Shown here piece by piece: positions 19,247-64,000 of a DNA stretch of 64,000 nucleotides (the stretch's first letter is position 1; each line of letters starts with the position of its first letter). Source of the stretch: Escherichia phage FL31; the sequence record PP400782. One strand, 5' to 3'. Below the pieces are notes generated by a model. That model had not been told where the DNA came from. It saw nothing but the letters and a program-made list of their open reading frames with translations, and made no database searches. A program made the translations under genes and the position numbers.

Positions 19247-19903
19247 ATGGCCGATTTAAAAGCCGGAAGTACAGTTGGTGGTTCCGTCATATGGCATCAA
19301 GGCAATTTTCCTTTAATGCCAGCTGGCGATGACATCCTATATAAAACATTTAAATTATACACCGAATATAACAAGCCAAAAGCGGCTGATAACGATTTCG
19401 TATCTAAAGCAAATGGTGGGACATATCTCAAAAAGGTAATCTTTAACGAAGGTGTTGCAGTCAAAACAGCAGATGACCAAACGAATGGCATTTTTTCTGG
19501 CGGTGGTGACGCCGCGACATTCGACCAAACAAACATGGATATTGTTTCGTGGTATGGTATTGGGTTTAAATCATCTCAAGGTACAGGTGAAAGAACTGTT
19601 GTAATTGATACTCGCACCGGTAATATAAGTTCTAAAGGCGTTATTGAAGCATCTCAATTCAGAGCCACAACGTTAGCACCTTTAAATAATTACGACCTTA
19701 CTCGCAAAGATTATGTTGATAGTCAAATAAATACAGTTAATGCTAATGCAAACAGTCGTGTACTCCGTTCAGGAGATACGATGACCGGCGCGCTAACCGC
19801 CCCAAACTTTTTCTCACAGAATCCTGCATCTCAACCCTCGCATGTTCCACGATTTGACCAAATTGTTATTAAGGATTCTGTTCAAGATTTCGGCTATTAT
19901 TAA
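19247..19903 (+). CDS. 36: long tail fibre distal connector gp36
   Basis: 218 aa; N-terminus MADLKAGSTVGGSVIWHQGNF. Confidence 0.85.
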   Translation: MADLKAGSTVGGSVIWHQGNFPLMPAGDDILYKTFKLYTEYNKPKAADNDFVSKANGGTYLKKVIFNEGVAVKTADDQTNGIFSGGGDAATFDQTNMDIVSWYGIGFKSSQGTGERTVVIDTRTGNISSKGVIEASQFRATTLAPLNNYDLTRKDYVDSQINTVNANANSRVLRSGDTMTGALTAPNFFSQNPASQPSHVPRFDQIVIKDSVQDFGYY

Positions 19904-19911
19904 GAGGACTT

Positions 19912-22900
19912 ATGGCTACTTTAAAACAAATACAATTTAAAAGAAGCAAAACTGCAGGAGCACGTCCTGCCGCTTCAGTATTAGCCGAAGGTGAATTGGC
20001 TATAAACTTAAAAGACCGTGTACTTTTTACTAAAGATGACCAAGGAAATATTATTGATCTGGGTTTTGCTAAAGGTGGTAGTATTGACGGGAATGTTATT
20101 CATACTGGCAATTATAACCAAACTGGCGATTATACTTTAAATGGCACCTTCACTCAGACAGGTAATTTTAATTTAACCGGTATTGCTCGAGTAACTCGTG
20201 ATATTATTGCCGCTGGGCAGATTATGACTGAAGGCGGAGAACTTATTACAAAAAGTTCAGGTACAGCGCATGTTCGTTTTCATGATTCAGCTAATCGTGA
20301 ACGTGGAATCATTTATGCCCCGGCTAATGATGGATTAACTACGCAAGTAGTTAATATCCGCGTTCAAGACTACGCCGCCGGTGATGAAAGCACCTATGCA
20401 TTTTCAGGCAGTGGCCTATTTACTTCACCTGAAGTATCAGCATGGAAATCTATGTCAACTCCTCAGATTTTGACAAATAGAGTTATTACTAATAATAAAT
20501 CTACGAGCGATTATGATATTTATTCTATGGCAGACAACGTTCCATTGTCTGAAAGCACTACTGCTATTAATCATCTCCGTGTTATGCGCAATGCTGTAGA
20601 CGCTGGTGTATTCCATGAAGTTAAAGATAATGATGGAATAACTTGGTATACCGGAGATGGCTTAGACACTTATCTTTGGTCGTTTACCTGGTCCGGCGGA
20701 TTGAAAGCAGGCCATTCTATTTCTGTTGGTACTCCTGGTGGCAATAAAGGATACTCTGAATTAGGGACTGCTTCAATTTCTCTTGGCGATAATGATACCG
20801 GGCTAAAATGGCATCAGGATGGATATTATTTCAGCGTCAATAATGGAACGAAAACATTTTTATTTAGCCCTAGCGAAACAACTAGCCTAAGAAAATTTGT
20901 AGCTGGATATTCTACTAATGGAACAGATTTAACTACTCCTCCGACTGAAAACTATGCATTAGCCACTGTTGTTACTTACCATGATAATAACGCGTATGGT
21001 GACGGTCAAACTCTTTTAGGTTATTATCAGGGCGGTAATTATCACCACTATTTCCGCGGTAAGGGTACTACAAACATTAATACTCATGGCGGTTTGTTAG
21101 TTACTCCTGGTAATATTGACGTTATTGGTGGTTCTGTTAATATCGATGGTAGAAATAATTCTTCTACACTGATGTTTAGAGGTAACACAACTGGTGCTAG
21201 TTCAGTTGATAATATGACAATTTCTGTATGGGGTAATACGTTTACTAATCCTAGTGTAGGTAATCGTAAAAACGTTATGGAAATTTCTGACGCAACTAGT
21301 TGGATGAGCTATATTCAAAGACTTACTACTGGTGAAGTAGAAATGAACGTCAATGGTTCATTTGAATCATCTGGTGTTACTGCTGGAAATAGAGGAGTTC
21401 ACACAACAGGCGAAATTTCATCCGGAGCAGTGAATGCGCTTCGCATTTGGAATGCAGATTATGGAGCTATTTTTAGACGTTCAGAAGGCAGTCTTCATAT
21501 TATTCCAACTGCTTATGGTGAAGGTAAACATGGTGATATCGGTCCACTTCGCCCGTTTAGTATGGCTTTAGATACCGGTAAAGTTACTATTCCAGATTTA
21601 CAATCAAGTTACAATACGTTTGCTGCTAACGGTTATATTAAATTTGTTGGTCATGGAGCGGGTGCCGGCGGTTATGACATTCAATATGCTCAAGCGGCCC
21701 CTATTTTCCAGGAAATTGATGATGATGCTATAAGCAAATATTATCCTATTGTTAAACAGAAGTTTTTAAACGGCAAAGCTGTTTGGTCTTTAGGTACTGA
21801 AATTAATTCGGGTACATTCGTTATTCATCATCTGAAAGAAGATGGTTCACAAGGCCATACGTCTCGTTTTAATCAGGACGGTACTGTTAACTTCCCGGGT
21901 AACGTTCAAGTTGGTGGTGGCAGAGCTATTATTGCTGAAAATGGTAACATTTTCTCTGATATCTGGGAAACATTTACTTCAGCTGGAGACACTACAAATA
22001 TTCGTGATGCGATAGCTACTCGTGTTTCTAAAGAAGGTGACACGATGACTGGTAAATTGACTTTATCTGCTGGAAATGATGCCCTTGTTTTAACTGCAGG
22101 CGTGGGTGCTTCATCGCACATCCGTAGCGATGTAGGTGGTACAGGTAACTGGTATATAGGCAAAGGCGGCGGCGATAATGGTCTAGGTTTTTACAGTTAC
22201 ATTACACAAGGCGGTGTATACATAACAAATAATGGCGAAATATCGCTTTCTCCTCAAGGTCAAGGAACATTTAATTTTAATAGAGACCGCCTTCATATAA
22301 ACGGTACACAATGGGTTGCGCATAAATCTGGCGCCTGGGGTGACCAATGGGGTTTAGAAGCTCCTATATTTGTAGATTTTGGATCCGTCAGCAATGACTG
22401 CTATTATCCTATTATTAAAGGAAAATCTGGTATTACTAACGAAGGATATTTTTCCGGCGTAGATTTTGGTATGCGACGCATTACTAATACCTGGGCGCAA
22501 GGTATTATTCGTGTAGGTAACCAGGAAAATGGCCATGACCCACAGGCTGTCTATGAATTCAATCATAACGGCACTTTTTATTCTCCTAACATGGTTCAAA
22601 CCGGCGCAAAACTATCAGCTGGTGGTGGTGACCCGGTATGGACTGGACCGTGTCTTGTTATTGGTGATAATGACACTGGGTTAGTTCATGGCGGTGACGG
22701 CCGAATCAATATGGTTGCCAATGGTATACATATTGCAAACTGGGGAGCAGGCTATCAATCTCATCCTGGGCTTTGGGATTCAACCGGTGCTTTTTGGACA
22801 GAAGTTGGAAGAGCTATCGTTTCTCATGGGCATCTCGTTCAGGCAAATGATAGTTATTCAACGTTTGTCCGTGATGTTTATGTCCGTTCTGATATTCGTG

Positions 22901-24073: not shown

Positions 24074-24733
24074 ATGGCAGCACCAAAAGTATCATTTTCG
24101 CCTAGTGATATTTTATTTGGGTTGCTAGACCGCATTTTCAAAGATAACGCCTCTGGAAATATTCTTATTTCCAGAGTTGCTGTTGTAGTTCTTTTGTTCC
24201 TAATGGCACTAATATGGTACAAAGGGAATATTTTTATGGATTATTACGTGAGGTCGAAATATGATACTTACACAGAAGTAATTCAAAAAGAAAGAAATAC
24301 ACGATTTGAATCTGCGGCTTTAGAACAACTACAAATAGTCCACGTCACATCAAGGGCGGATTTTAGTTCGGTGTATTCTTTCAGACCTAAAAATCTAAAT
24401 TATTTCGTCGACCTTATTGCGTATGAAGGTAAGTTACCTAGCACAGTAACTGAAAAATCTATGGGAGGATTTCCTGTCGATAAAACGACAGCAGAATATT
24501 CGGTCCATTTAAGTGGACTTCACTTTACTTCTAAAACAGATTTTGCTTTCTTACCTACCAAATCAAAAACTCCGGAACTGGCATATATGTATAGTTGTCC
24601 TTACTTCAATTTGGATAACATATATGCTGGAACTGTTTCTATGTATTGGTATAAGGGGTCAGATGTGTTAAATGAAGAACGCTTGGCCGCAATATGCAAC
24701 CAAGCTGCAAGGATATTAGGGCGGGCTAAATAA
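24074..24733 (+). CDS. t: holin T
   Basis: MAAPKVSFSPSDILFGLLDRIFKDN...AARILGRAK matches recalled T4 holin along its length. Confidence 0.9.
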   Translation: MAAPKVSFSPSDILFGLLDRIFKDNASGNILISRVAVVVLLFLMALIWYKGNIFMDYYVRSKYDTYTEVIQKERNTRFESAALEQLQIVHVTSRADFSSVYSFRPKNLNYFVDLIAYEGKLPSTVTEKSMGGFPVDKTTAEYSVHLSGLHFTSKTDFAFLPTKSKTPELAYMYSCPYFNLDNIYAGTVSMYWYKGSDVLNEERLAAICNQAARILGRAK

Positions 24734-26070: not shown

Positions 26071-26531
26071 TAATAAAGGTCCTCTGAATAAAGTTCTTTC
26101 TCACTTCCACCACGTTCAATATGTACCTGTCCAGCATACGTTGCAATAATCATTGCTTCTTCACGAGTCCAGTAATTAGAGTATTGGTCGATAAAGCCTT
26201 GGTCATCGCCACAAACTTGTTGCGAGACTAATTGAGGACCAACTATATCAAGTACTTCAGCCATATCTTTAGAGTAATGACGAACTCCAGGAATAACCAG
26301 AGTTCCACCGCTCTTCAATTTAAACCTATTAGCTGCACATACTATAACACGTTGAACTTTTTGGTCATTATTCCAATAGCACGTTTGCCAACAGATTTCA
26401 GGAACTTCATTCATTATATCATCAGCAGAATAATTATAACCGTAGGACTGGAATTTTTCTGCTAGACTTTCAGGAGTCTCACGAGACAAGGCCAAATCTA
26501 ATAGCTCTAAACGTTCTTTAAATGATTTCAT
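26070..26531 (-). CDS. hypothetical protein (153 aa)
   Basis: ORF in operon. Confidence 0.45.
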
Positions 26532-48629: not shown

Positions 48630-48827
48630 ATGTTTAAACTTCCATCGTTAATCAACGCTATTAAAGGCAATAAAAAGAAAACTGCTATCGCTGCAATAGT
48701 TGTAGGTGGCATTATTTCATGGAACTTCGGGATTGCACCATTGCTAGTTGCCCATGGTGTTATGGTTCCTTCTGTTCCATTGGATACTGTAGTTGATTTG
48801 GCCTTTGCTATTATAGGGCTTGTTTAA
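48630..48827 (+). CDS. small membrane protein (65 aa), lone plus-strand gene in the early region
   Basis: Strong SD TAAGGAGAT before the ATG; hydrophobic sequence; convergent with gene 61. Confidence 0.4.
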   Translation: MFKLPSLINAIKGNKKKTAIAAIVVGGIISWNFGIAPLLVAHGVMVPSVPLDTVVDLAFAIIGLV

Positions 48828-49846
48828 ATCTTCGAATAACGAGATAATCTCATTTTAGCATGCAACCCACTTGAAATATTCTGTTTCATATATTCTAAAA
48901 TTTCTTGTGGTGTTGCATTTTCTTTCATTACCATATCATTCACATCCTTTGATCTCCATGGAGCTCGATCCCAGAACATGACACGTTCGCCTGCATCAAC
49001 TAATCGCTTCATGCGAGCTATAGTATCCGGATGCCTAGGTTCATTATCCATTACCCATACCCGACGTTCTTTAAACGGTACCACATCTAAATCTATTGAG
49101 CCGCCTGTAATAGCGATTGCATTGGGTATGAATAAACTATCAATAGGGCCTTCCATTACCCAGACGTCCCCTTCCTTAACACGTTCAACACCATAAATTT
49201 TTGTTGCAGACTCAAACGCTTTAATAGTGATATATTTCTGAGGAGCATCTTTACGAAGTGCACGTCCTTGGAATGACTCGGCCTTCCCATCTTTATTAAA
49301 AATAGGAATCACTAAACGTGGTTCGGGGATCTCTTTCTTATACGTACCAGGTTGAATCTTGTTGACCAATTTGGGCCATTCTAATGTGAACCATAATCTG
49401 TTCCACGATTCTTTAGGAATACACCGAGACTTAACATATTTCACAATAGGATGCTCTTCAGGCAACTTGTCCAGACGAGAACAAGACGGCAAAGAATTTA
49501 TAGTCTTTTTCTCTGGCTCTGGCTTAGCTTCAGGAACCTTTTCAATCTTTGGTTCCATTCTAGCTTTTTCTTTACGAACTTCCATTAGATATTCGCGATA
49601 AAGCTCTTCATCATACTCCTTTAAGTATCCGGAAATTGTATTGTGGTATTGACAGTTATAGCAATGTACATTACCAGGAGTACCGCCATAATACCAACCG
49701 CGAGCTTTCATTGCATCTGTCTGAGAGTCGCCACAAACTGGACATCGAAATGTTAATTTAAATGTGCTTGAATTATTGATTTGTCTAAAACGAGGTAGGT
49801 GAGAAAACGCACGATAAGCAAATTCATTATCTATCCATTCAGCCAT
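48824..49846 (-). CDS. 61: DNA primase gp61
   Basis: 340 aa; zinc ribbon FRCPVCGDS...CYNC; TOPRIM region; matches recalled T4 gp61. Confidence 0.95.
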   Translation of the reverse strand: MAEWIDNEFAYRAFSHLPRFRQINNSSTFKLTFRCPVCGDSQTDAMKARGWYYGGTPGNVHCYNCQYHNTISGYLKEYDEELYREYLMEVRKEKARMEPKIEKVPEAKPEPEKKTINSLPSCSRLDKLPEEHPIVKYVKSRCIPKESWNRLWFTLEWPKLVNKIQPGTYKKEIPEPRLVIPIFNKDGKAESFQGRALRKDAPQKYITIKAFESATKIYGVERVKEGDVWVMEGPIDSLFIPNAIAITGGSIDLDVVPFKERRVWVMDNEPRHPDTIARMKRLVDAGERVMFWDRAPWRSKDVNDMVMKENATPQEILEYMKQNISSGLHAKMRLSRYSKI

Positions 49847-49885: not shown

Positions 49886-50380
49886 TCACAACTTATTAAT
49901 ATTTACTTTAATTCGCTTTCTTTTCTTGGAAGGAATTTGTTCGGGACCTTTATTTACGACTGCACCTGTAGTAGTTCCTGATGCAATAGCTTGAGGACTG
50001 CCACCTGAATCACCAGCAACCATATCCTCAAATAAAGGGAGTTCTTTAAATATTTCTTTCTGCTGTTCTTCGGTAATGTTATAGCGTGAAGCTACAGCAC
50101 TCCAAGCAGACATCATTGAGGCCATTCCATTAAGACCTGGAACAGTGCTCATCATTCGCTTCATTGAACGAACTGAAGCATGAAAAGGTGTATAAGCCGC
50201 TTTCTCTTCAGGAGTGGAAGGGCGTTTAAGAACACTTCCACGTTCATCGATGATTTTGGCTTCGTATGCTTTCCATTCGGTAAAAGGTTTTTGCATTAGT
50301 CGAATAAACTTATATGCATAAACAGAATCTATTGCAGTGTTAATAATACCCATAGGTACCTCCTGAGTATATTTAATCAA
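49886..50380 (-). CDS. hypothetical protein (164 aa)
   Basis: ORF. Confidence 0.45.
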   Translation of the reverse strand: MIKYTQEVPMGIINTAIDSVYAYKFIRLMQKPFTEWKAYEAKIIDERGSVLKRPSTPEEKAAYTPFHASVRSMKRMMSTVPGLNGMASMMSAWSAVASRYNITEEQQKEIFKELPLFEDMVAGDSGGSPQAIASGTTTGAVVNKGPEQIPSKKRKRIKVNINKL

Positions 50381-50571: not shown

Positions 50572-51231
50572 TTAACCTCGATTCATAAATGCATTAAATA
50601 TTTGGTCATCAACAGAAATTTCTAATTCGACTTCAATTGCTTCAGCCTTTTCTTCAGGTGGTAATTCGTATCCACACACTACAATTTTTTCATCGATATC
50701 AAAATATACAGAAGCAATACGATTAATGTTATTTTCAGTTAAGTCCAAATCAACATCAACATCTTTTTGGCCTACACTTAGAGGATAACTAATACGGGTT
50801 ATTTTATTATCTTTAACAAAGAGTCCACCAACATACTCTGTACTGCGTTTGAAGTTTACACGTTTCCGAATTGAAAGATATGATACATCTTTACCGTGAG
50901 CTCGGCTCATAGGACATAATGAATAGCTAGAATAAGAGATGTCAAATCCTACACCTTCAATATGAGCCAACGCGTCATGATTAAACCAATTATAATCATA
51001 TGCCAAATCCATTATATTGTAATATGTGAAAGGCACTGGATTAACATCATATGTTGTACCTTTAAAATCAGCCCAGGCAACGATTTCGTTATCTTTAACA
51101 ATTACAAAAATTACACCAATATGGTATCCGTTATTATTTTCATTCGGCGTTATATTATAACATTGTGCATTAGGAAATTTACCATATTTAAATGGTGCGT
51201 TTTTGTGCATGTAATAAATCATATTATTCAC
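50572..51231 (-). CDS. hypothetical protein (219 aa)
   Basis: ORF. Confidence 0.45.
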   Translation of the reverse strand: MNNMIYYMHKNAPFKYGKFPNAQCYNITPNENNNGYHIGVIFVIVKDNEIVAWADFKGTTYDVNPVPFTYYNIMDLAYDYNWFNHDALAHIEGVGFDISYSSYSLCPMSRAHGKDVSYLSIRKRVNFKRSTEYVGGLFVKDNKITRISYPLSVGQKDVDVDLDLTENNINRIASVYFDIDEKIVVCGYELPPEEKAEAIEVELEISVDDQIFNAFMNRG

Positions 51232-51517
51232 CTGTGATTTCGGTTACGATATCTTTGTTATCGAAATTAGGGTCACAATACAAAACATAGTTGTACTGCA
51301 TAATACCGCCAGACTTAAGTTGTTCAACAACTTTATTAACCATGTTAGGACGGTCTCGTTTAGTGATGTTCATGATATCAGAGAAGATTTGTTGTTCAAC
51401 CTCTTCTTGATTTGCAGTCATTGACCACTCACAGAGGTCTTTATCATAACCTGCCGTAACTGGAGCCGGTGCACATGATACTGCAAGTAAGATTGCTGCC
51501 AATGATAACTTTTTCAT
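51224..51517 (-). CDS. hypothetical secreted/periplasmic protein (97 aa)
   Basis: N-terminal signal peptide MKKLSLAAILLAVSCAPAPVTA. Confidence 0.45.
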   Translation of the reverse strand: MKKLSLAAILLAVSCAPAPVTAGYDKDLCEWSMTANQEEVEQQIFSDIMNITKRDRPNMVNKVVEQLKSGGIMQYNYVLYCDPNFDNKDIVTEITGE

Positions 51518-51546
51518 TTTAACTCCTTAGTTGATTTGATAGGACT

Positions 51547-51576
51547 ACTATACTATAGTCCATCTATAATGTAAAC
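51547..51576 (-). promoter_or_regulatory. early promoter-like element (-35 GTTTAC, -10 TATAGT) with AGTCCTATCAAA box
   Basis: Minus strand GTTTACattatagatggactatagTATAGTagtcctatcaaatc. Confidence 0.4.
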
Positions 51577-51580
51577 AAGT

Positions 51581-51829
51581 TTATTCTTTTTCGCGAATAA
51601 TAATTACTTGTTGAGGCTGCTGAGCCGATTTCTTTTCGGCAACGATAGACCAAATTAAAGTTCCAATCCAACCAACCATCGTCCAGTTAAAGAGTAAAGA
51701 TACAAAGAAGATTGCTGTTGTGCTTTTTGTGCCACGAATAAGTGCGATTACCCAAGGCAACATGTAAATGATGATTGAACCAATACCTGCGATTAAAACT
51801 GCTACTGAACTAGCTACGAATAATTCCAT
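51581..51829 (-). CDS. superinfection immunity protein (Imm family) homolog
   Basis: 82 aa two-TM protein with LPWVIALIRG...AIFFVSLLFNWTMVGWIGTLIWSI, resembling the Imm-superinfection family motif. Confidence 0.55.
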   Translation of the reverse strand: MELFVASSVAVLIAGIGSIIIYMLPWVIALIRGTKSTTAIFFVSLLFNWTMVGWIGTLIWSIVAEKKSAQQPQQVIIIREKE

Positions 51830-51890
51830 GTTAATTTCCTCTTGATTTGTTATGTTTATAGTATCTTGTTTTAACTTTGGTGTAAACCAA

Positions 51891-52259
51891 TTAATTAAAT
51901 TTGTTTAAACGTTCAATACACTGGACGTAGTTATTCGCGATTTGTTTCTGGGTAGGCTCTTTACCAGTTGTTTCAACATAGCGAATGAATGCGATTTCAG
52001 TGGCCTGTAGACAATGTTCTTTAACGCGTTGTTCTTTTGACAATGCTACAGTATCAGAGTCACGATAACGTTGAGCATGGGCATCAGCTTGAATCATTCG
52101 ATTACCTACAGTAACCGGGTCTTCCACTTCAACTTTAGGTTGGTCATACTGTTTAACATTCGGATTGTAAATTAATTGGCCAACGTTATTAGGGATAAAG
52201 CCATGGGCACCACATCCGGTTAATCCAAATACCATTGCTAAAGCGATTAATTTTTTCAT
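51891..52259 (-). CDS. putative lipoprotein (122 aa)
   Basis: Signal peptide with lipobox LTGC. Confidence 0.5.
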   Translation of the reverse strand: MKKLIALAMVFGLTGCGAHGFIPNNVGQLIYNPNVKQYDQPKVEVEDPVTVGNRMIQADAHAQRYRDSDTVALSKEQRVKEHCLQATEIAFIRYVETTGKEPTQKQIANNYVQCIERLNKFN

Positions 52260-52287
52260 TTCAATTTCCTCTGTAGTTGATAGAAAG

Positions 52288-52317
52288 ATAGTAACACAGT
52301 ATGTGGTGCTTGTAAAC
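52288..52317 (-). promoter_or_regulatory. early promoter-like element (-35 GTTTAC, -10 TACTAT)
   Basis: Minus strand GTTTACaagcaccacatactgtgtTACTAT. Confidence 0.4.
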
Positions 52318-52330
52318 AGTTATTTTAAAA

Positions 52331-52540
52331 TTATTGAAAACCTGCTTCGAAAACTTTCTCGTCATTAATAAATGCTTTAACTAATGCTTTGTTCACTTCA
52401 GCAAGTTGTACCGTAACCCACTCGATTTCTTCGCGATCACCTGATAACATGATATCTTTAGTGAACATCTCACCGCTTTTAAACCAACCGATAAAAGTAA
52501 CTTTAGTTAATTTGCTCATATTTCCTCGCAAAATGCCCAT
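52331..52540 (-). CDS. hypothetical protein (69 aa); overlaps the end of the upstream ORF
   Basis: ORF only. Confidence 0.25.
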   Translation of the reverse strand: MGILRGNMSKLTKVTFIGWFKSGEMFTKDIMLSGDREEIEWVTVQLAEVNKALVKAFINDEKVFEAGFQ

Positions 52541-52833: not shown

Positions 52834-52859
52834 TTTGTTCTCCAGTAGTTGATAGGTCT

Positions 52860-52888
52860 ATAATAACACAACTACTGGAGAAGTAAAC
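52860..52888 (-). promoter_or_regulatory. early promoter-like element (-35 GTTTAC, -10 TATTAT) nested in an inverted repeat that includes the downstream SD
   Basis: Minus strand GTTTACttctccagtagttgtgtTATTATagacctatcaactactggagaacaaaATG. Confidence 0.45.
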
Positions 52889-53263
52889 TTAAAAACGTAA
52901 TTTAGATACATCTGCGTTGATTTCGGTTTGGTTTGCGTCGTATGCAATTAAACGAACCGCTTTAGATGGGTCATTCAATGCATAGAAATGATGGAACATT
53001 GCTCGAACGATATCACCATTTACGAGTTCTACCTGGATAGGAGAACCTTTTTCGAGTTGGAAATGTTCATAAGCTTTGATGGTTCGCAGATAATCAAGTT
53101 TTTGATTTCCGGCTCCAACAATTTGTACGATACGTTTGCCCATGTTTTCCATACGAGATACAATAGTTTTAGGAGCAAGAATAACGTAGGTTGCCAGCGG
53201 AGAAACTACTTCAACAGTTGTGTTTTCGGTGATTGCAGTAAAAATTGCTTGAGACATATTCAT
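52889..53263 (-). CDS. hypothetical protein (124 aa)
   Basis: ORF with AAGAGGAAAA SD. Confidence 0.45.
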   Translation of the reverse strand: MNMSQAIFTAITENTTVEVVSPLATYVILAPKTIVSRMENMGKRIVQIVGAGNQKLDYLRTIKAYEHFQLEKGSPIQVELVNGDIVRAMFHHFYALNDPSKAVRLIAYDANQTEINADVSKLRF

Positions 53264-53292
53264 AATGTTTTCCTCTTGGTTTGTGTAAGTAC

Positions 53293-53322
53293 ATCATATC
53301 ATGCCTAGAGGAAGATGTAAAC
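53293..53322 (-). promoter_or_regulatory. early promoter-like element (-35 GTTTAC, -10 TATGAT)
   Basis: Minus strand GTTTACatcttcctctaggcatgaTATGAT. Confidence 0.4.
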
Positions 53323-53345
53323 CCCGAAAGGAGACCGAAGTCTCC
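53320..53345 (-). terminator. UUCG hairpin/terminator after gene 41
   Basis: Minus strand ggagac-UUCG-gucucc followed by UUUCGGGGUUUAC (moderate U tract). Confidence 0.45.
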
Positions 53346-53351
53346 TTTTTA

Positions 53352-54794
53352 TTAAAATTTTAACTCATTGGCTAAGCTATCTAGGTCAGCACGTGTTGCT
53401 TTGGCTTTACCTACGCGTTCCGTACGATTCACCTCTGCCTGACGCATCTGAGCACCTGCGTTTTCATTTACTGTGTTAGGTGTGTTCATGCCTTCTTGCT
53501 CAATCTCAACCCATTTCTGGTTGCCTTTACGTACACCCATCAGGAATTTATTCCACTTATTCTTATCACCATATCGTGATTTGATTTGTTTGATAAGTTG
53601 TTGTTCAGCTTGTGCAAGTTCTTCGGTTTCAATTACAGCCAACATGAAATCTGCCGTTGCTGGTAAACCTGCTGATTCTGCGATATCACTCATGTTCATG
53701 TCTGAAGCATCCCATGCTGCACGTCCTACTTGAGCTGCAGTCCATAGAACTGTTTCAGATTCTACTGCTAATGCACGAAGTTCTTCTGCGATAGCTTTAA
53801 CTAATGTGTAGCTATTTTCAGTGTAAACTCTGATACGACAAGACCCACAAATACCTAAGTAATCAACCATGATTACAGATGGCACAAAGTTCTTCTTAAG
53901 TTTTAACTCATTAAGCAATGCACGAAATGTATTAGCGTTAGCTCCACCAGTAGGATACTGTTTAACTACTAAACGTCCTAATGTTGTTTTTGAACGCCAT
54001 TTTTCCATCTTGGCTTTATATTCAGCATAAGATACGTTACCATCATCGATATCATCGAGTGATACGTCAAGCATGTTTGCATCTATACGCTTAGCACAAA
54101 CTTCTTCAGCCATTTCCATGGAAATATAAAGAACATTATGACCTGTTTGAAGATAATCTGCAGCAAGTGAACAAAGGCCTAAAGATTTACCGACGTTAAC
54201 ACCGGCCATTAAAACGTTTAGTGTACCTGTTTCAGCACCACCTTTAGTGATTTTATTCAAAATGTTTAATTTGAACGGGACCTTACGTGCTTTATTTAGA
54301 TAAGAAAGCCAGCGTGCTTCGTAGTCTTCCATCCAGTCATGTCCAACATAACTATCGAACGAAATTGAAAGTGCTTGACGCATAATATCAGGAATAGCTC
54401 CTACGTCAGGCATTTTCTTGTTACGTTGTTCTGGAGGTAGTTCAGCATTAGACTGAATCTCAATGATTTTGGACGTAGCATTATACATCGCTTTTTGCTG
54501 GACATATTTCTCAGTTTCTTTAACCAACCATTCGTGGTCTTCAGGAGTATCAGCCAATTTTTCAATTAGGTCTGAAGTTCCTTTATATTCGGCTTCAGTT
54601 AAAGAACTGTTATCTAAAGCCACCTTTAACGCATTGATAGATGGCATTGCATTATATTCGTTAACGTGGCTCTTTATAATTTTAAAGACATTTTTTGCCG
54701 GTCCACGCTCAAAATACTCAGAATCCATATAAGGCCAGACCTTAGAAAAATAAGCCTGGTCATATACTAGATGAGACAAAATAATTTCTACCAC
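53352..54794 (-). CDS. 41: replicative DNA helicase gp41 (DnaB-like)
   Basis: 480 aa; Walker A GVNVGKS; DnaB-family helicase motifs; synteny. Confidence 0.95.
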   Translation of the reverse strand: MVEIILSHLVYDQAYFSKVWPYMDSEYFERGPAKNVFKIIKSHVNEYNAMPSINALKVALDNSSLTEAEYKGTSDLIEKLADTPEDHEWLVKETEKYVQQKAMYNATSKIIEIQSNAELPPEQRNKKMPDVGAIPDIMRQALSISFDSYVGHDWMEDYEARWLSYLNKARKVPFKLNILNKITKGGAETGTLNVLMAGVNVGKSLGLCSLAADYLQTGHNVLYISMEMAEEVCAKRIDANMLDVSLDDIDDGNVSYAEYKAKMEKWRSKTTLGRLVVKQYPTGGANANTFRALLNELKLKKNFVPSVIMVDYLGICGSCRIRVYTENSYTLVKAIAEELRALAVESETVLWTAAQVGRAAWDASDMNMSDIAESAGLPATADFMLAVIETEELAQAEQQLIKQIKSRYGDKNKWNKFLMGVRKGNQKWVEIEQEGMNTPNTVNENAGAQMRQAEVNRTERVGKAKATRADLDSLANELKF

Positions 54795-56958: not shown

Positions 56959-57858
56959 TTATTCCTCGATTACGACATCTTCATATTTAGGTATATTATA
57001 CGGCGAAGAAATTAAAGCGTTAAAGTAGATGAACTCACCAAGACCTGGATGGAATACTTCTTCAGGATTTTCGAAATATTGAATCTTCGGACGTCCTTTA
57101 AGAATTTGATAGTACTCAGTTTTAGTTGGTTTAAAAATTCGAATCAACGCTTCTTCAGGATACTTATTTCTGTCGAAGCTATTATTTGGATCAGTTATAT
57201 AAAGCGGTTGACCTAATTGAATTGCGCATTCAACAACTTGTTCAAAACGATAACACGGGTCACTAATTCGAAATGGATGAAAAATACCATCTAGATGAAT
57301 AGGAGCCAAATCACCTACAAGACGCTGCATGATGGAAGGACGTATAACTTTCTGCGTTACGATAATCTTATTACCATCTGCACCAGCGTTAACCAGCACT
57401 TCTTTTTGACGTTCATTCAACACAGTAGTTTGAAGTGAACGATTAACCGACAACATATCAGTTTTTAAGAATTCATCAATATAAAAACGTGGTTTATTAG
57501 GGTCTGCAGTGATATTGAAATTGAATTCCACATCAAAAGCGCCGTCATATCCAGTGATATCTGTGATTAGAAAATCACAGTCATAATAAGCAATTAATGA
57601 ATCAACCACAAATTCATTTTCAGACCAGAAATATTTACGAGTGTTATACGCGTTATCTTTATACCATAATGGAACAAACTTAAATTCTGGAAAAAGACGT
57701 TCGCATTCTTTAATATCAGATGCATTACGTGGATATGTAATCACATCACCCGGATTAGCACGGTGCAAATGAAGTTGGAAGTTGCCATCCTTAAGGATAG
57801 CATACTGTCCAGTTTCATAAGACCGCATACTCAAAATAGGTACGCGGAAAATAGCCAT
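56959..57858 (-). CDS. hypothetical protein (299 aa) at the locus where T4 encodes beta-glucosyltransferase
   Basis: ORF translationally coupled to gene 42 (TAATG); no recognisable beta-gt similarity. Confidence 0.5.
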   Translation of the reverse strand: MAIFRVPILSMRSYETGQYAILKDGNFQLHLHRANPGDVITYPRNASDIKECERLFPEFKFVPLWYKDNAYNTRKYFWSENEFVVDSLIAYYDCDFLITDITGYDGAFDVEFNFNITADPNKPRFYIDEFLKTDMLSVNRSLQTTVLNERQKEVLVNAGADGNKIIVTQKVIRPSIMQRLVGDLAPIHLDGIFHPFRISDPCYRFEQVVECAIQLGQPLYITDPNNSFDRNKYPEEALIRIFKPTKTEYYQILKGRPKIQYFENPEEVFHPGLGEFIYFNALISSPYNIPKYEDVVIEE

Positions 57859-58574
57859 TAGTCAAGGAATCCTTTAACATAATCAAAATCACGTTCAAAC
57901 ACATGGGCACTTACCATGGTATGAGTATAATCACCAACTTCTACATCACATTCGTTAGCGATATAATGAAGTAATTTTCCTTGGAGATAAAAATCCAACT
58001 GCATAACAACAGCACAGTTCTGAGAACGCATATGACAGTGGGTATAAAGCTTACCATCACGAATATAATAAGTCACTGAGTCAGTACATGGATATTCAAG
58101 CGTTTCGTCTGAATCAAGCAAAGCCTGATCAGAACTTTCTAGAATTTGGAACACAACTCTTCGGGAGTTAGGCTTCTCTTTAAGTTCTTTTAGAAGAGCT
58201 GGTAATTGGGCCGCAATGCGAGGACCATAGAAAGTGTTGAAGTTCGCCGGCAAAACATCTGATTTTGGTTTAGAAATAAATTTAGCGACATTAGGATATG
58301 CCTTAAACGCTTCTTCTGCGTTGGTACCACCAGAAATCATAAACTTCCAGAAGTCTTCAGCATATTCATAAGAGATGCGGTTAATACGTGGGTCGGTCAT
58401 TTTGAATGATGATGGAGTGTCAACAACTACTGTCATAGACCCAATTTCATTACAACGTCCAATACGAGAATCAGTTACGAATTCCGGGTTTTCTAAAATT
58501 TCACGATTGACTGCTTTAAATGCGGTTTGAAAATCTGCGGCTTTGATATATTTCATTGTGTTATGTTTTCCCAT
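57858..58574 (-). CDS. 42: dCMP hydroxymethylase-like enzyme (thymidylate-synthase fold; gene 42 equivalent)
   Basis: TS-family core YPCTDSVTYYIRDGKLYTHCHMRSQNCAVVMQLDFY with Asp at the position that is Asn in thymidylate synthases (cytosine-type); synteny after gene 43. Confidence 0.75.
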   Translation of the reverse strand: MGKHNTMKYIKAADFQTAFKAVNREILENPEFVTDSRIGRCNEIGSMTVVVDTPSSFKMTDPRINRISYEYAEDFWKFMISGGTNAEEAFKAYPNVAKFISKPKSDVLPANFNTFYGPRIAAQLPALLKELKEKPNSRRVVFQILESSDQALLDSDETLEYPCTDSVTYYIRDGKLYTHCHMRSQNCAVVMQLDFYLQGKLLHYIANECDVEVGDYTHTMVSAHVFERDFDYVKGFLD

Positions 58575-60069: not shown

Positions 60070-60471
60070 TTATAGATTCGGTTTATATGATTTAAATGTT
60101 TCGAATTCGCCTTTATTCATAAGAGCTTTGAATTCGTCAGGACGCATAGCTTTGTCGTCGATAATCCAATCATATACTGGTTTATGTGTTAGCAAATTAT
60201 GGTACTTCAAGCCAATGTTCGCCAAGTTCTGAATCAGACTTGGGAGAATGTCAATTGCTATACGACCAGGACCTACTGACTTCATACCGCGAGCAGTGTA
60301 AAGCGTTATGGTATGCCCTGCATCATACAGGGCATTAATGGCAGTCACCATTTCGACGTCTGGTTTGAAGTTCACGTAATCACGATTGTTATTCCACTCT
60401 GTTATACAATCATCGACATCAAAACAAAGATTAAGCATGTTTTCTACACGGTGCATTAGATTCGTTCCCAT
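60070..60471 (-). CDS. HAD-superfamily phosphatase (small, sugar-phosphate phosphatase-like)
   Basis: HAD motif I FDVDDCIT; motif II ITLYTAR; motif III/IV K...WIIDDK. Confidence 0.6.
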   Translation of the reverse strand: MGTNLMHRVENMLNLCFDVDDCITEWNNNRDYVNFKPDVEMVTAINALYDAGHTITLYTARGMKSVGPGRIAIDILPSLIQNLANIGLKYHNLLTHKPVYDWIIDDKAMRPDEFKALMNKGEFETFKSYKPNL

Positions 60472-62141
60472 TGATGAGTGATATCGCCACCGATTGGACG
60501 ATAGGAAACACCAGTTTCTTTATCAGTTAGTACCCATTTACCAGGATTTTTTGTAATCAGAGTAGCCGTTACAGGTTCTGCTACGTCATAACTAATAGAG
60601 CCGTCTTGAAGTACACGGCCCATGTTACGTAATTGCTTAGTCAGAAGTTCCATACCTTTATAATATGCGGCTACCGCTTTAAGTGGATTATTCTTGAAAT
60701 AACCACCTAATGCAATCCAGATAATTGCTACAGCCAAATGATGATATTCATTAAACGAACTCAGCTTTCCATATTTGTAAACTAATGGATTGATGTTAAT
60801 AGTCACATTACAAGTTGTTTCATCAATAGTAAACTGTCCCCAGGTCGGATTAGCATTGAATTCATCATAACCTGAAACAGCATAAAGCACTTTAGCTTCA
60901 TCATACAATTTTGGCCCGTAAATCTTGGTTTCGCCAAAATATCCACGAGGGTCGATAAACTTGACTTCGCCGTTATCAGTAATCATAGTATTACTGAAGT
61001 TCGGGTCACCATGAATAACAGAGTACTGTCCCTGAGAACGGTTATGATAACGAATAAGGTGTTCTAAAGCTTGTTTCAGCATTGGCTTCAGACGTCTAAT
61101 CTTAGTGTAGTTCACATGTGTGATTTTACCAAATGAATCAATCAATGGTTGAATGCTTTCACAACGATCAATAACTTTCGTATAGAATTCTTTAGTGAAA
61201 TCACGACGAACAGTTTCAGGACTTACAAAATAAGTGTCTGTGCTGAATTTCAGTGCATCTAAAATTGCATCAACAATTTGTGGACGAGCAAGACTTGATT
61301 TGGATTTAATATATTCAAATGCCGGCTTACCTTTAATGCGTTCCATTTCAAAGTTATTTTCATTAACAGAAACTAACTGAGGAACTGAATCTGATTTCAC
61401 TTTCAAATACCACGAAATCTCATCTTTCTGAAGAGCTCGTCCCTGTTCGGTTAATGCGAATTTAGTTACAGTTTCTTCACCAATTTCAACTGCATTAAAA
61501 CTACGATTAAGTTCACGAACTTCATGGGCCTTTTCAAGTTTAGGCATATCACCTAAATCAATTAGATTCATAAGCTCTGATTTATTGAATGCGCTGCCGT
61601 AAAGGAATTCTACGAAATCACGTCCTTTGCAGTATTCATGAATTTCCTCATCAGTAGAACCCATATAGAATTCCCAGTCTTTGAACTGATAAATTCCTAC
61701 AACATTACCACCTGTTGAACCTACGTTAGTGATATTTTCACCGTCGAAATTATACCGACATTCATCACCCTTAACATAGATTGCGTTAACATTCCAAGAC
61801 CATGAACCAAAATCAGGAATAATATCACACCAGTTAACAATTACGTTATGGCCGTCTAAATCTTTGTGTAATTTAGCAAGAGCATAAGCAGAACCATACG
61901 CTTCATCAACTGTACGAATAGTCACATTGAACCCTTCTTGCTCACAATAAGCTCGAACAGTTTCAGCAAATTTTGAATGAACTACTACAATAATTTCATC
62001 TGCGCCAAGGTCAGAATAAATTGTATACAAATTGCTCAGAATAGTGTCTTGTTTATAGTTAACAAGCACCTTAGGAATATGATGCGTTATTGGATACAAA
62101 CGAGTTGCCAGTCCAGCACCAAGAATAACAGCTTTTTTCAT
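60456..62141 (-). CDS. bifunctional sugar-1-phosphate nucleotidyltransferase (N-terminal) / sugar kinase (C-terminal, APH/ChoK-like fold)
   Basis: N-terminal GAGLATRL nucleotidyltransferase signature; C-terminal Brenner-type IHGDPNFSNTMI and VKFIDPRG kinase motifs. Confidence 0.7.
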   Translation of the reverse strand: MKKAVILGAGLATRLYPITHHIPKVLVNYKQDTILSNLYTIYSDLGADEIIVVVHSKFAETVRAYCEQEGFNVTIRTVDEAYGSAYALAKLHKDLDGHNVIVNWCDIIPDFGSWSWNVNAIYVKGDECRYNFDGENITNVGSTGGNVVGIYQFKDWEFYMGSTDEEIHEYCKGRDFVEFLYGSAFNKSELMNLIDLGDMPKLEKAHEVRELNRSFNAVEIGEETVTKFALTEQGRALQKDEISWYLKVKSDSVPQLVSVNENNFEMERIKGKPAFEYIKSKSSLARPQIVDAILDALKFSTDTYFVSPETVRRDFTKEFYTKVIDRCESIQPLIDSFGKITHVNYTKIRRLKPMLKQALEHLIRYHNRSQGQYSVIHGDPNFSNTMITDNGEVKFIDPRGYFGETKIYGPKLYDEAKVLYAVSGYDEFNANPTWGQFTIDETTCNVTININPLVYKYGKLSSFNEYHHLAVAIIWIALGGYFKNNPLKAVAAYYKGMELLTKQLRNMGRVLQDGSISYDVAEPVTATLITKNPGKWVLTDKETGVSYRPIGGDITHQWERI

Positions 62142-62182: not shown

Positions 62183-62316
62183 CTAGTTAAAGCATTCATA
62201 CTTTGCTTGTAGTCCAATCATAATCCATCCAATTACAAGTGTTGGAATCATTACCGGAGCCGTTAAGCTCCAGTAGATAGTCATGACAAGCATCAATAGT
62301 AAAAGTCCTATTGTTA
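62183..62316 (-). CDS. small hydrophobic peptide (about 47 aa), not in supplied track
   Basis: Manual translation MKAITIGLLLLMLVMTIYWSLTAPVMIPTLVIGWIMIGLQAKYECFN; GAGG SD. Confidence 0.25.
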
Positions 62317-62322
62317 TTGCTT

Positions 62323-62958
62323 TCATTGTTCGCCTCGTAACATGGCACCTAGTGCACCGCCTGGATGGAACTTAAGGAAATCATTAGAGGTAAATCCACG
62401 TTCAGACGAAAGGTTGATAGCAAACGTATCGATAAGCGCTAACAATAATGTAGTGGACATTGTCGGAGCTAAAGAGTTCTCGTCAACTTCTACCGCGATA
62501 CCGGTACAGAACGTATAATCAAAAAGAGCTTCGTATTCTTGTGGAATGTCAGGGTTACAATGTAACAGAATCTGTTTAACCTGAGGACGAATCATACGAA
62601 GATGTTTAGCAACACCTATCATTTCTTCAGTCTTACCAGAACGACTGATGTGAACTAATACATCATTAGGTGCAATAAATCCTGCGTCACCATGAGAATA
62701 ATGCCCAGTGTTCAAGTACATACTTGGGATACCGAGTGAAGCAAAAGTCTCGGAAGCTTTAGTTGCGATATTAGCGTTCTTACCAACACCTGTAATAATT
62801 ACTCGGCTTTCATAATTACTAAGTCCCGGGCGTCGAAGAGTTTCTAGAATAGCATTATAACGAGCAGGGTTTTGACTAATTACTTTGGCCATAGCGGCCA
62901 AAGAAGAAGCTTGTTTTATGATTGCGTCAATAGCGATAGTAATAGGAGTAGTTTTCAT
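62323..62958 (-). CDS. SIS-domain sugar-phosphate isomerase (KdsD/KpsF arabinose-5-phosphate isomerase-like, lacking CBS domains)
   Basis: VIITGVGKNANIATKASETFASLGIPSMYLNTGHYSHGDAGFIAPNDVLVHISRSGKTEE parallels the recalled KdsD SIS core (GKSGHIG...ATFASTGTPS...HGDLGMV...AISNSGES). Confidence 0.7.
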   Translation of the reverse strand: MKTTPITIAIDAIIKQASSLAAMAKVISQNPARYNAILETLRRPGLSNYESRVIITGVGKNANIATKASETFASLGIPSMYLNTGHYSHGDAGFIAPNDVLVHISRSGKTEEMIGVAKHLRMIRPQVKQILLHCNPDIPQEYEALFDYTFCTGIAVEVDENSLAPTMSTTLLLALIDTFAINLSSERGFTSNDFLKFHPGGALGAMLRGEQ

Positions 62959-62998: not shown

Positions 62999-64000
62999 TC
63001 AAAAATCGAACATATCGAACAGAGATGCTTTCTTCTCGTAATCGAGTTTCGCTGCTGATGTGAATCCTTCAAGTGGTTTAATAAATGTCTTCTCAAGGAG
63101 AACAGTGTAGTCCATCCAATGAAGTACATCGTCTTTAATTAAATCTGTGATTTCAGTACCAGAAGGCCATGCGATACATTTATCACCGAATGGGTTTCCT
63201 TCACGTAAAGGCAGAACATATACTTTTTCACCTTCTACAACTTGTGGTGCATCAATATTACCTTTGATAGCTCGGTTATATGTCAGAATTCCACGAATAT
63301 GGAACGGGCATTTGGGACCAGGGAATCCACCTACGTCATATTTAGCAATGTTATTCGCAGAAGATACCGACGCGATGCTAATATAATTCAATTGACGGAA
63401 TTCTTTTTCAAACTCTTTAAAATATTCTTGTAATGATTCTTCACCTTCTTGAAGCATACGACGAATACATTCTTTAAGAGCTTTCTGTACTGCTTTAGGA
63501 GTCGAAGATTTCTGAGTCTCTAGACCCATGATTTTGAGTTTAGGCTCGGCGTAACGAGTACCTTCCATATCCCACACGTTTAATGCATAACGTTTCTTAC
63601 CAGTCCAAAATCCACCAATACCTTTAGAACCGAGCGGAGGGCCAGCGATAGCTTCTCGGTCCATGAACATTAAGTGTTGTTTATTGTTCATGTATTCGCA
63701 CATTTCACGGAAACCTTTATCAATAGCAGGTTCCATACGTTCACGAGCGAACTTATCTAAGAAGTCTACCCAATGGTTAGTATCACGGAATTTAGATTCA
63801 CCAACCTTATCGATAATTTTATCAGCAGATACGTAAATAGAGTCTGTATCACCATATAGAACGAAAGCTTCACCTTCTGTACCACAAACTTCATTCAGAT
63901 ATTCATTAACTTTACGTTCAATCCACTGTAAAGCCATTTGACCAAATGTTGTGATTGCAGTAGCATTACGCAAATCATAATAACGGAACCAAACGTTGCC
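62999..64000 (-). CDS. 43: DNA polymerase gp43, C-terminal part (gene continues beyond the window end)
   Basis: Family B polymerase YGDTDS motif; frame stays open to the window edge (…GNVWFRYYDLRNATAITTFGQ…). Confidence 0.95.
   Translation of the reverse strand, partial: GNVWFRYYDLRNATAITTFGQMALQWIERKVNEYLNEVCGTEGEAFVLYGDTDSIYVSADKIIDKVGESKFRDTNHWVDFLDKFARERMEPAIDKGFREMCEYMNNKQHLMFMDREAIAGPPLGSKGIGGFWTGKKRYALNVWDMEGTRYAEPKLKIMGLETQKSSTPKAVQKALKECIRRMLQEGEESLQEYFKEFEKEFRQLNYISIASVSSANNIAKYDVGGFPGPKCPFHIRGILTYNRAIKGNIDAPQVVEGEKVYVLPLREGNPFGDKCIAWPSGTEITDLIKDDVLHWMDYTVLLEKTFIKPLEGFTSAAKLDYEKKASLFDMFDF

Follow-up and report, generated by a model that had tools for sequence, protein, structure and literature searches.

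In the 64,000-nt stretch of Escherichia phage FL31 analysed here (PP400782; the window), the superinfection immunity gene imm is very probably that of an RB69-like Mosigvirus, which has moved together with its upstream partner imm.1 from the flank of gene 43 to a place between dmd/61.4 and sp, and for which orthology with T4 Imm predicts a role in exclusion.

Identification of an Imm ortholog

The gene under study is the following:

51581-51829, minus strand: imm, an 82-aa ATG ORF; putative superinfection immunity protein with two predicted transmembrane helices, T4 Imm ortholog

Judged by sequence comparison, the product of this ORF and T4 Imm are true orthologs. The start codon is preceded at 8 nt by a GAGG ribosome-binding site, and the product matched the Pfam family PF14373 (Imm_superinfect) with 56.9 bits (cutoff 27.9; E 1.8e-15) over profile positions 1-42 of 42, as well as PHROG 1039, “immunity to superinfection” (E 1.2e-30). 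BLASTP against T4 Imm (AAD42582), the founding member of PF14373, gave a full-length alignment with 53 of 83 positions identical (64%; 1 gap; E 4e-37), and the C-terminal tail QVIIIREKE is the same in both proteins. T4 Imm, with 83 aa, also shares the two-helix layout, the core motif and the imm.1 partner of the window protein. The assignment to the Imm family, made in a preliminary description from the letters and their translations, is thus supported by profile search and by alignment alike. The Imm of RB69 (AAP75938; AY303349 / NC_004928, 19011-19259) is 100% identical to the window Imm in tblastn.

The same description had spoken of a two-transmembrane protein, which agrees with the hydropathy profile and with structure prediction. 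Two hydrophobic stretches, at about residues 3-31 and 38-64, are separated by RGTKS and peak at 2.5 (residues 3-21) and 1.6 (residues 40-59), and a single-sequence AlphaFold model places helices at residues 2-31 and 37-81 (pLDDT 76.8); insertion of the protein into the membrane is a prediction from these two analyses. In an alignment of Imm proteins from five genera, 24 columns were invariant, including the core motif Y-x-L-P-W-x-x-A-L-x-R-G ... I-F-F ... W ... G-W ... I-W. Neither Imm nor Imm.1 matched a PDB sequence with an E-value of 1 or below, and no NCBIfam model matched Imm, Imm.1, 42.1 or Sp.

Outside Mosigvirus, the nearest Imm proteins are those of Tequatrovirus (64% identity), followed by Gaprivervirus, Gelderlandvirus and Dhakavirus at 47-51%, and PF14373 members at 34-41% identity occur in unrelated Vibrio phages and in Shigella phage DS8. 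At least 97.6% identity to the window Imm was found in 153 records, and a single record among the tblastn matches listed fell at 80-90%. The gene is single-copy per genome (805 places in 805 records by tblastn), and no second copy or remnant of imm or imm.1 was found across the whole 64 kb.

Position of imm in the window, RB69 and T4

The interval that now holds imm is made up of the following landmarks and neighbours:

53352-54794, minus strand: gene 41 helicase, bounding the recipient interval upstream
52331-52540, minus strand: dmd (PF17587, 72.9 bits)
51891-52259, minus strand: imm.1, a 122-aa predicted exported protein with DUF5481 and the lipobox LTGC, moved with imm
51224-51517, minus strand: sp (spackle), the second T-even superinfection-exclusion gene, directly downstream of imm
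48824-49846, minus strand: gene 61 primase, bounding the recipient interval downstream

The product of sp was identified by PF25676 (T4_Spackle, 144.9 bits) and PHROG 1586. Gene orders compare as follows:

Window: 41, two ORFs, dmd, imm.1, imm, sp, 61.2, on to 61
RB69 (AY303349): 41, ORF041c, ORF040c, dmd, 61.4, imm.1, imm, sp, 61.2, on to 61.1 and 61
T4: 43, imm.1, imm, 42, with an unannotated 42.1 between imm and 42; and elsewhere 41, dmd, 61.4, sp, 61.2, 61.1, 61

The placement of T4 imm between 42 and 43, given in the preliminary description, is borne out by the GenBank order of T4, and the window ORF does lie between genes 41 and 61. It stands between dmd and sp, 10.5 kb from the locus that carries 43, a SIS-domain gene and 42.1, so that the T4-type synteny, in which imm lies directly downstream of 43 and overlaps 42.1, is not the arrangement of the window. 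T4 imm follows imm.1 at 11 nt without a promoter and overlaps 42.1 by ATGA; unlike it, the window imm has its own promoter-like site within the 61 nt that separate it from imm.1, and the sp promoter comes next.

When imm was described as relocated, the change of position was real, but two corrections are needed. Since the ORF directly upstream of imm is a DUF5481 protein like T4 Imm.1, the unit that moved is the imm.1-imm pair. Further, the arrangement is not a new observation: imm.1 and imm are annotated between 61.4 and sp in RB69 AY303349, public in GenBank since 2003, and the same order recurs in about 150 sequenced Mosigvirus genomes. An explicit discussion of the relocation was not found in the literature consulted.

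The window is that of an RB69-like Mosigvirus. Across the 6 kb spanning genes 61 to 41, its identity to the 30 best-matching phage genomes, most of them RB69-like Mosigvirus, was 98.4-98.8%, and coverage of this region reached at least 80% in 150 records. RB69 has the same Imm protein, the same neighbours imm.1 and sp, and identical flanking spacers. It differs in keeping 61.4 upstream of imm.1, the region being otherwise 98.4-98.6% identical in nucleotide sequence to the window.

Relative to RB69, gene 61.4 is deleted in the window: 208 nt (RB69 19766-19973) are missing, with the joint at 52336/52338, and the 3′ end of dmd is fused to the last 16 nt of 61.4. As a result, dmd is joined directly to the imm.1 promoter. 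The best-matching genomes, AV118, mobillu and JK45, give unbroken alignments and seem to have the same deletion, so that it is polymorphic within Mosigvirus.

Direction of the move and the 42.1 ORF

Three features of the gene 43 side bear on the direction of the move:

62999-64000, minus strand: 3′ part of gene 43 (DNA polymerase), running off the window (ORF 62999-63973); ancestral imm landmark
62323-62958, minus strand: SIS-domain sugar isomerase (PF01380; RB69 ORF055c), arabinose-5-phosphate isomerase-like, lying between 43 and 42.1, where T4 has imm.1-imm
62183-62326, minus strand: 42.1-like membrane ORF, 47 aa, still near gene 43

The synteny comparison across T-even genomes that the preliminary description had proposed placed imm directly downstream of 43 in Tequatrovirus T4, Dhakavirus IME08, Gaprivervirus VR26 and Gelderlandvirus SEA1. 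A metagenomic contig of 1.5 kb (L006) carries the C-terminus of 43, a frd.3-like gene, imm.1, imm and 42.1, and its Imm is 82% identical to that of T4 and 61% to that of the window. Gene 43 of the window is collinear with that of RB69 (97.8% nucleotide identity).

42.1 is a conserved hydrophobic ORF of 47-49 aa (window 62183-62326, T4 26220-26376, VR26 24260-24403), which is unannotated in the T4 reference. The VR26 42.1-like protein is 57% identical to the window protein (E 2e-21), and the GenBank annotation of RB69ORF054c reads “similar to T4 42-imm intercistronic region”. In each case 42.1 overlaps the preceding gene by ATGA, which is imm in T4 and VR26 and the SIS gene in the window. This constant overlap, whatever gene precedes, suggests that translational coupling was kept regardless of the partner.

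Because imm lies beside 43 in four genera and in L006, and 42.1 is still found near 43 with its ATGA overlap, the gene 43 side is ancestral and the Mosigvirus position derived. On gene order and homology, 42.1 marks the site vacated by imm.1-imm. In the Mosigvirus lineage, imm.1 and imm thus left the place just downstream of 43 for their present one between dmd/61.4 and sp, and the SIS isomerase of the arabinosylation cluster fills the old slot, with 42.1 staying behind as a footprint.

The sugar cluster in the 42-43 interval

The remaining genes assigned between the gene 42 homolog and gene 43 are the following, together with the gene 42 homolog itself:

60456-62141: nucleotidyltransferase, 561 aa
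58853-60013: U32-family gene, in the same cluster as the gene 42 homolog
57858-58574: gene 42 homolog with a Thymidylat_synt domain, corresponding to RB69 gp48

RB69 gp48 is reported to be a flavin-dependent 5-hydroxy-dCMP synthase and not a dCMP hydroxymethylase (PMC13326640, 2026). Between this gene and 43 stand the U32-family gene, a 133-aa ORF, the nucleotidyltransferase, 42.1 and the SIS gene. The presence of sugar genes here had been noted from the sequence, and the U32-family gene, the nucleotidyltransferase and the SIS isomerase were indeed seen; the genes of the interval match the RB69 arabinosylation cluster (PMC6024577; PMC13326640).

The earlier reading had gone further, taking the 42-43 interval for a recombination hot-spot into which the sugar module was inserted. 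Its first half is sound: the interval between uvsX and 43 was different in every genus examined, which makes the label of a variable region fair. The recipient 41-61 interval is itself variable, since its gene order differs in VR26 and the window lacks 61.4, so that the move appears as a hop between two plastic regions. The second half is weakened by IME08, which keeps imm beside a sugar cluster, its order being 43, imm and then an RB69-like ORF cluster (homologs of 045c, 047c, 048c, 051c and 052c). Since a related sugar cluster coexists there with imm beside 43, having such a cluster is not enough to displace imm.

The causal form of this reading, in which a sugar module at the gene 43 flank replaced imm.1-imm and the copy on the sp side rescued the lost function, is possible, although we hold it to be less probable than not. 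The SIS gene sits exactly in the T4 imm.1-imm slot and has the ATGA overlap with 42.1, and SIS homologs are spread over many other phages, some of them annotated as arabinose 5-phosphate isomerase. In the distant, arabinosylating Bragavirus vB_SdyM_006, gene 43 is followed by one ORF, SIS and the nucleotidyltransferase; as SIS is on the gene 43 side there too, that side could have arrived as a block. In IME08, the gene at the corresponding position, orf44, was tried as a SIS homolog and rejected (E 0.056), and since imm holds the 43-proximal slot there, imm and SIS look like alternative occupants of it. The coexistence of sugar cluster and imm in the same IME08 interval speaks against replacement, however, as does the location of 42.1 inside the cluster, between SIS and the nucleotidyltransferase, from which it follows that the cluster was not inserted as one block. 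Moreover, an intermediate genome that would give the order of events, with both sites occupied by imm or both empty of it, was not found. An exchange of modules at the gene 43 flank that cost the original imm.1-imm can therefore be named as a reasonable partial cause, and only tentatively so.

The foreign-origin explanation, in which imm is a PF14373 paralog acquired horizontally from another phage or a bacterium after which the original imm was lost, is very unlikely. It could draw on the PF14373 members of the unrelated Vibrio phages and Shigella phage DS8, and on Imm.1, which is only 32% identical to that of T4 and mosaic in L006; against it, the ranking of Imm identities, with Tequatrovirus nearest, was judged to follow genus relatedness, the order and orientation of imm.1-imm are unchanged, and the C-terminal tail is that of T4. 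Least probable of all is an ancestral position on the sp side with the gene 43 side derived in the other genera, for although the clustering of imm and sp resembles a functional module and the sample holds five genera only, the same move would be needed in four genera and L006, the imm-42.1 ATGA overlap is common to T4 and the more distant VR26, and 42.1 lies near 43 in the window.

Besides these, three single ORFs of the window, of 561, 299 and 164 aa (60456-62141, 56959-57858 and 49886-50380), correspond to split pairs in the RB69 record (ORF053c/052c, ORF047c/046c and 61.1/ORF032c, respectively). The ORF053c/052c split in RB69 is a Sanger error (PMC6024577), and the ORF047c/046c and 61.1/ORF032c splits may be errors of the same kind.

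Junctions and promoter-like sites

The spacers around the imm.1-imm pair are the following:

52260-52330, minus strand: left junction of the moved pair, a spacer before imm.1 that carries an early-promoter-like GTTTAC-N18-TACTAT (52288-52317)
51830-51890, minus strand: imm.1-imm spacer, 61 nt, with an early-promoter-like GTTTAC-N18-TACTAT at 51858-51887 and GAGG; the same in RB69
51518-51580, minus strand: imm-sp spacer, with a promoter-like TTTACA-17-TATAGT at 51547-51575 and a stem-loop across the -10 box; right junction

The form GTTTAC-N17/18-TANNAT occurs 15 times in the window against 0.67 expected, always on the minus strand, and two of the 15 sites are those directly upstream of imm.1 and imm. 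From the motif directly upstream, early expression of imm is predicted. The promoters at the imm.1, imm and sp boundaries also fit the consensus TTTACW-N17-TAYWAT of the promoter-stem-loop cassettes of T4/PST (PMC4122927), and recombination between promoter cassettes has been described in T4-type phages (PMC2839356).

The left junction is 71.6% identical over 88 nt to the T4 spacer between 61.4 and sp, and homology to T4 sp begins 14 nt upstream of the sp ATG. The imm promoter is the best match in the window to the T4 sp promoter, by a small margin, and the promoter-like site between imm and sp resembles the T4 promoter upstream of dmd. With score margins this small in local alignments of the GTTTAC-type sites (33 against 28, 28 and 27), crossover points cannot be assigned. 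The gap between imm.1 and imm is 11 nt in T4 and 7 nt in L006, and neither contains a promoter; the 61-nt promoter-bearing spacer is specific to Mosigvirus, so that one cut-and-paste event is insufficient to account for the arrangement.

Stem-loops were significant after imm and before sp (z -2.79; -15 kcal/mol), after gene 41 (z -2.95) and before the ORF040c homolog (z -4.9), and none was significant upstream of imm.1 (z 1.11) or imm (z 0.08). In having early-promoter cassettes that bound small genes in variable regions, with significant stem-loops in those after gene 41, before ORF040c and before sp, the interval resembles the PeSL cassettes described earlier (Arbiol 2010, PMC2839356; Comeau 2014, PMC4122927). 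It differs from them directly upstream of imm.1 and imm, where the promoters lack a significant stem-loop and hence are not full promoter-stem-loop cassettes, and in that neither a recombination intermediate nor a mini-circle was seen, the link to relocation being drawn from the junctions. Most likely, imm.1-imm would have moved by illegitimate or short-homology recombination at early-promoter cassettes that bound small genes. Recombination at such cassettes would be the most economical mechanism, and it fits the location of the junctions at early promoters.

Two elements of the interval look like textbook promoter-stem-loop cassettes on their sequence. At 52834-52895, a perfect 12-bp inverted repeat (CTCCAGTAGTTG / CAACTACTGGAG) spans the -10 box before the ORF040c homolog (-21.1 kcal/mol, with the z of -4.9 given above), and at 53264-53351, just after gene 41, a terminator-like hairpin is followed by a GTTTAC promoter.

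Imm.1, the upstream partner

In both the window and T4, imm.1 immediately precedes imm and is read from the same strand. Its product was recognised by PF17578 (37.3 bits) and PHROG 1754, and T4 Imm.1 aligned to it with 32% identity (E 1e-18). Both versions have a signal peptide with a lipobox, LTGC in the window and LAGC in T4. By tblastn, Imm.1 was found only in Mosigvirus (154 records) and Tequatrovirus (502 records), and it has been listed as a group-specific marker in a published comparison (PMC5885020). A homolog search of a large protein set returned three proteins only, and the AlphaFold model built from three sequences (mean pLDDT 59.8) is confident solely in a C-terminal helical hairpin. 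SEA1 gp0042 was tried as an Imm.1 homolog and rejected (E 24).

The Imm.1 homolog of L006 (718-1086; a Logan contig of SRR30535852) is a mosaic. The N-terminal half resembles that of T4 (56% across residues 1-91), the C-terminal half looks RB69-like by eye, and the homolog is 46% identical overall to the window Imm.1. Unlike the window and T4 proteins, it has a signal of the signal-peptidase-I type (AHA|S) and no lipobox cysteine.

With its signal peptide and lipobox, and encoded beside an exclusion gene, Imm.1 is reminiscent of T5 Llp and other exported or lipoprotein exclusion factors; neither sequence similarity nor a confident structural similarity was found.

Predicted function of imm and its neighbours

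T4 Imm, an inner-membrane protein of the early class, keeps superinfecting T-even phages from passing their DNA across that membrane (GenBank notes; PMC7677548), a role that PMC11436027 also gives, citing Lu and Henning 1989. Spackle is an inhibitor of the gp5 tail lysozyme and complements T4 Imm (GenBank notes; PMC7677548; PMC11436027). The window Imm would likewise be a small inner-membrane protein, with a short basic loop connecting its two transmembrane helices, and from its orthology with T4 Imm it would be made early in infection. It would alter the entry site at the cytoplasmic membrane, so that the DNA of a later T-even phage is held in the periplasm and degraded, and it would work beside Spackle, the periplasmic lysozyme inhibitor. 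As 36% of the residues differ from T4 Imm, the specificity of exclusion may differ as well.

The stretch 50572-52540 of the 41-61 interval contains dmd (antitoxin against RnlA/LsoA), imm.1, imm, sp and adfA/61.2, which encodes anti-DarT factor A (PF23813, 397 bits). Given that dmd and adfA (61.2) share the interval with the exclusion genes, it reads as an island of counter-defence and exclusion.

The genes imm and sp are neighbours in Mosigvirus; both have a promoter-like site, and nothing resembling a terminator lies between them. One may speculate, with a low likelihood of being right, that imm.1, imm and sp form a single early envelope-directed module in Mosigvirus, in which the exported Imm.1 partners Imm and the fast, mosaic divergence of Imm.1, at 32% identity between the T4 and RB69 types compared with 64% for Imm, sets which phages are excluded. 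If this were true, Imm.1 divergence could contribute to the complete exclusion of T4 by RB69.

Taken alone, the imm finding is of little weight. It offers a tidy case of a small accessory cassette that hopped and left a footprint, 42.1, and that, in Mosigvirus, placed the two known exclusion genes next to each other.
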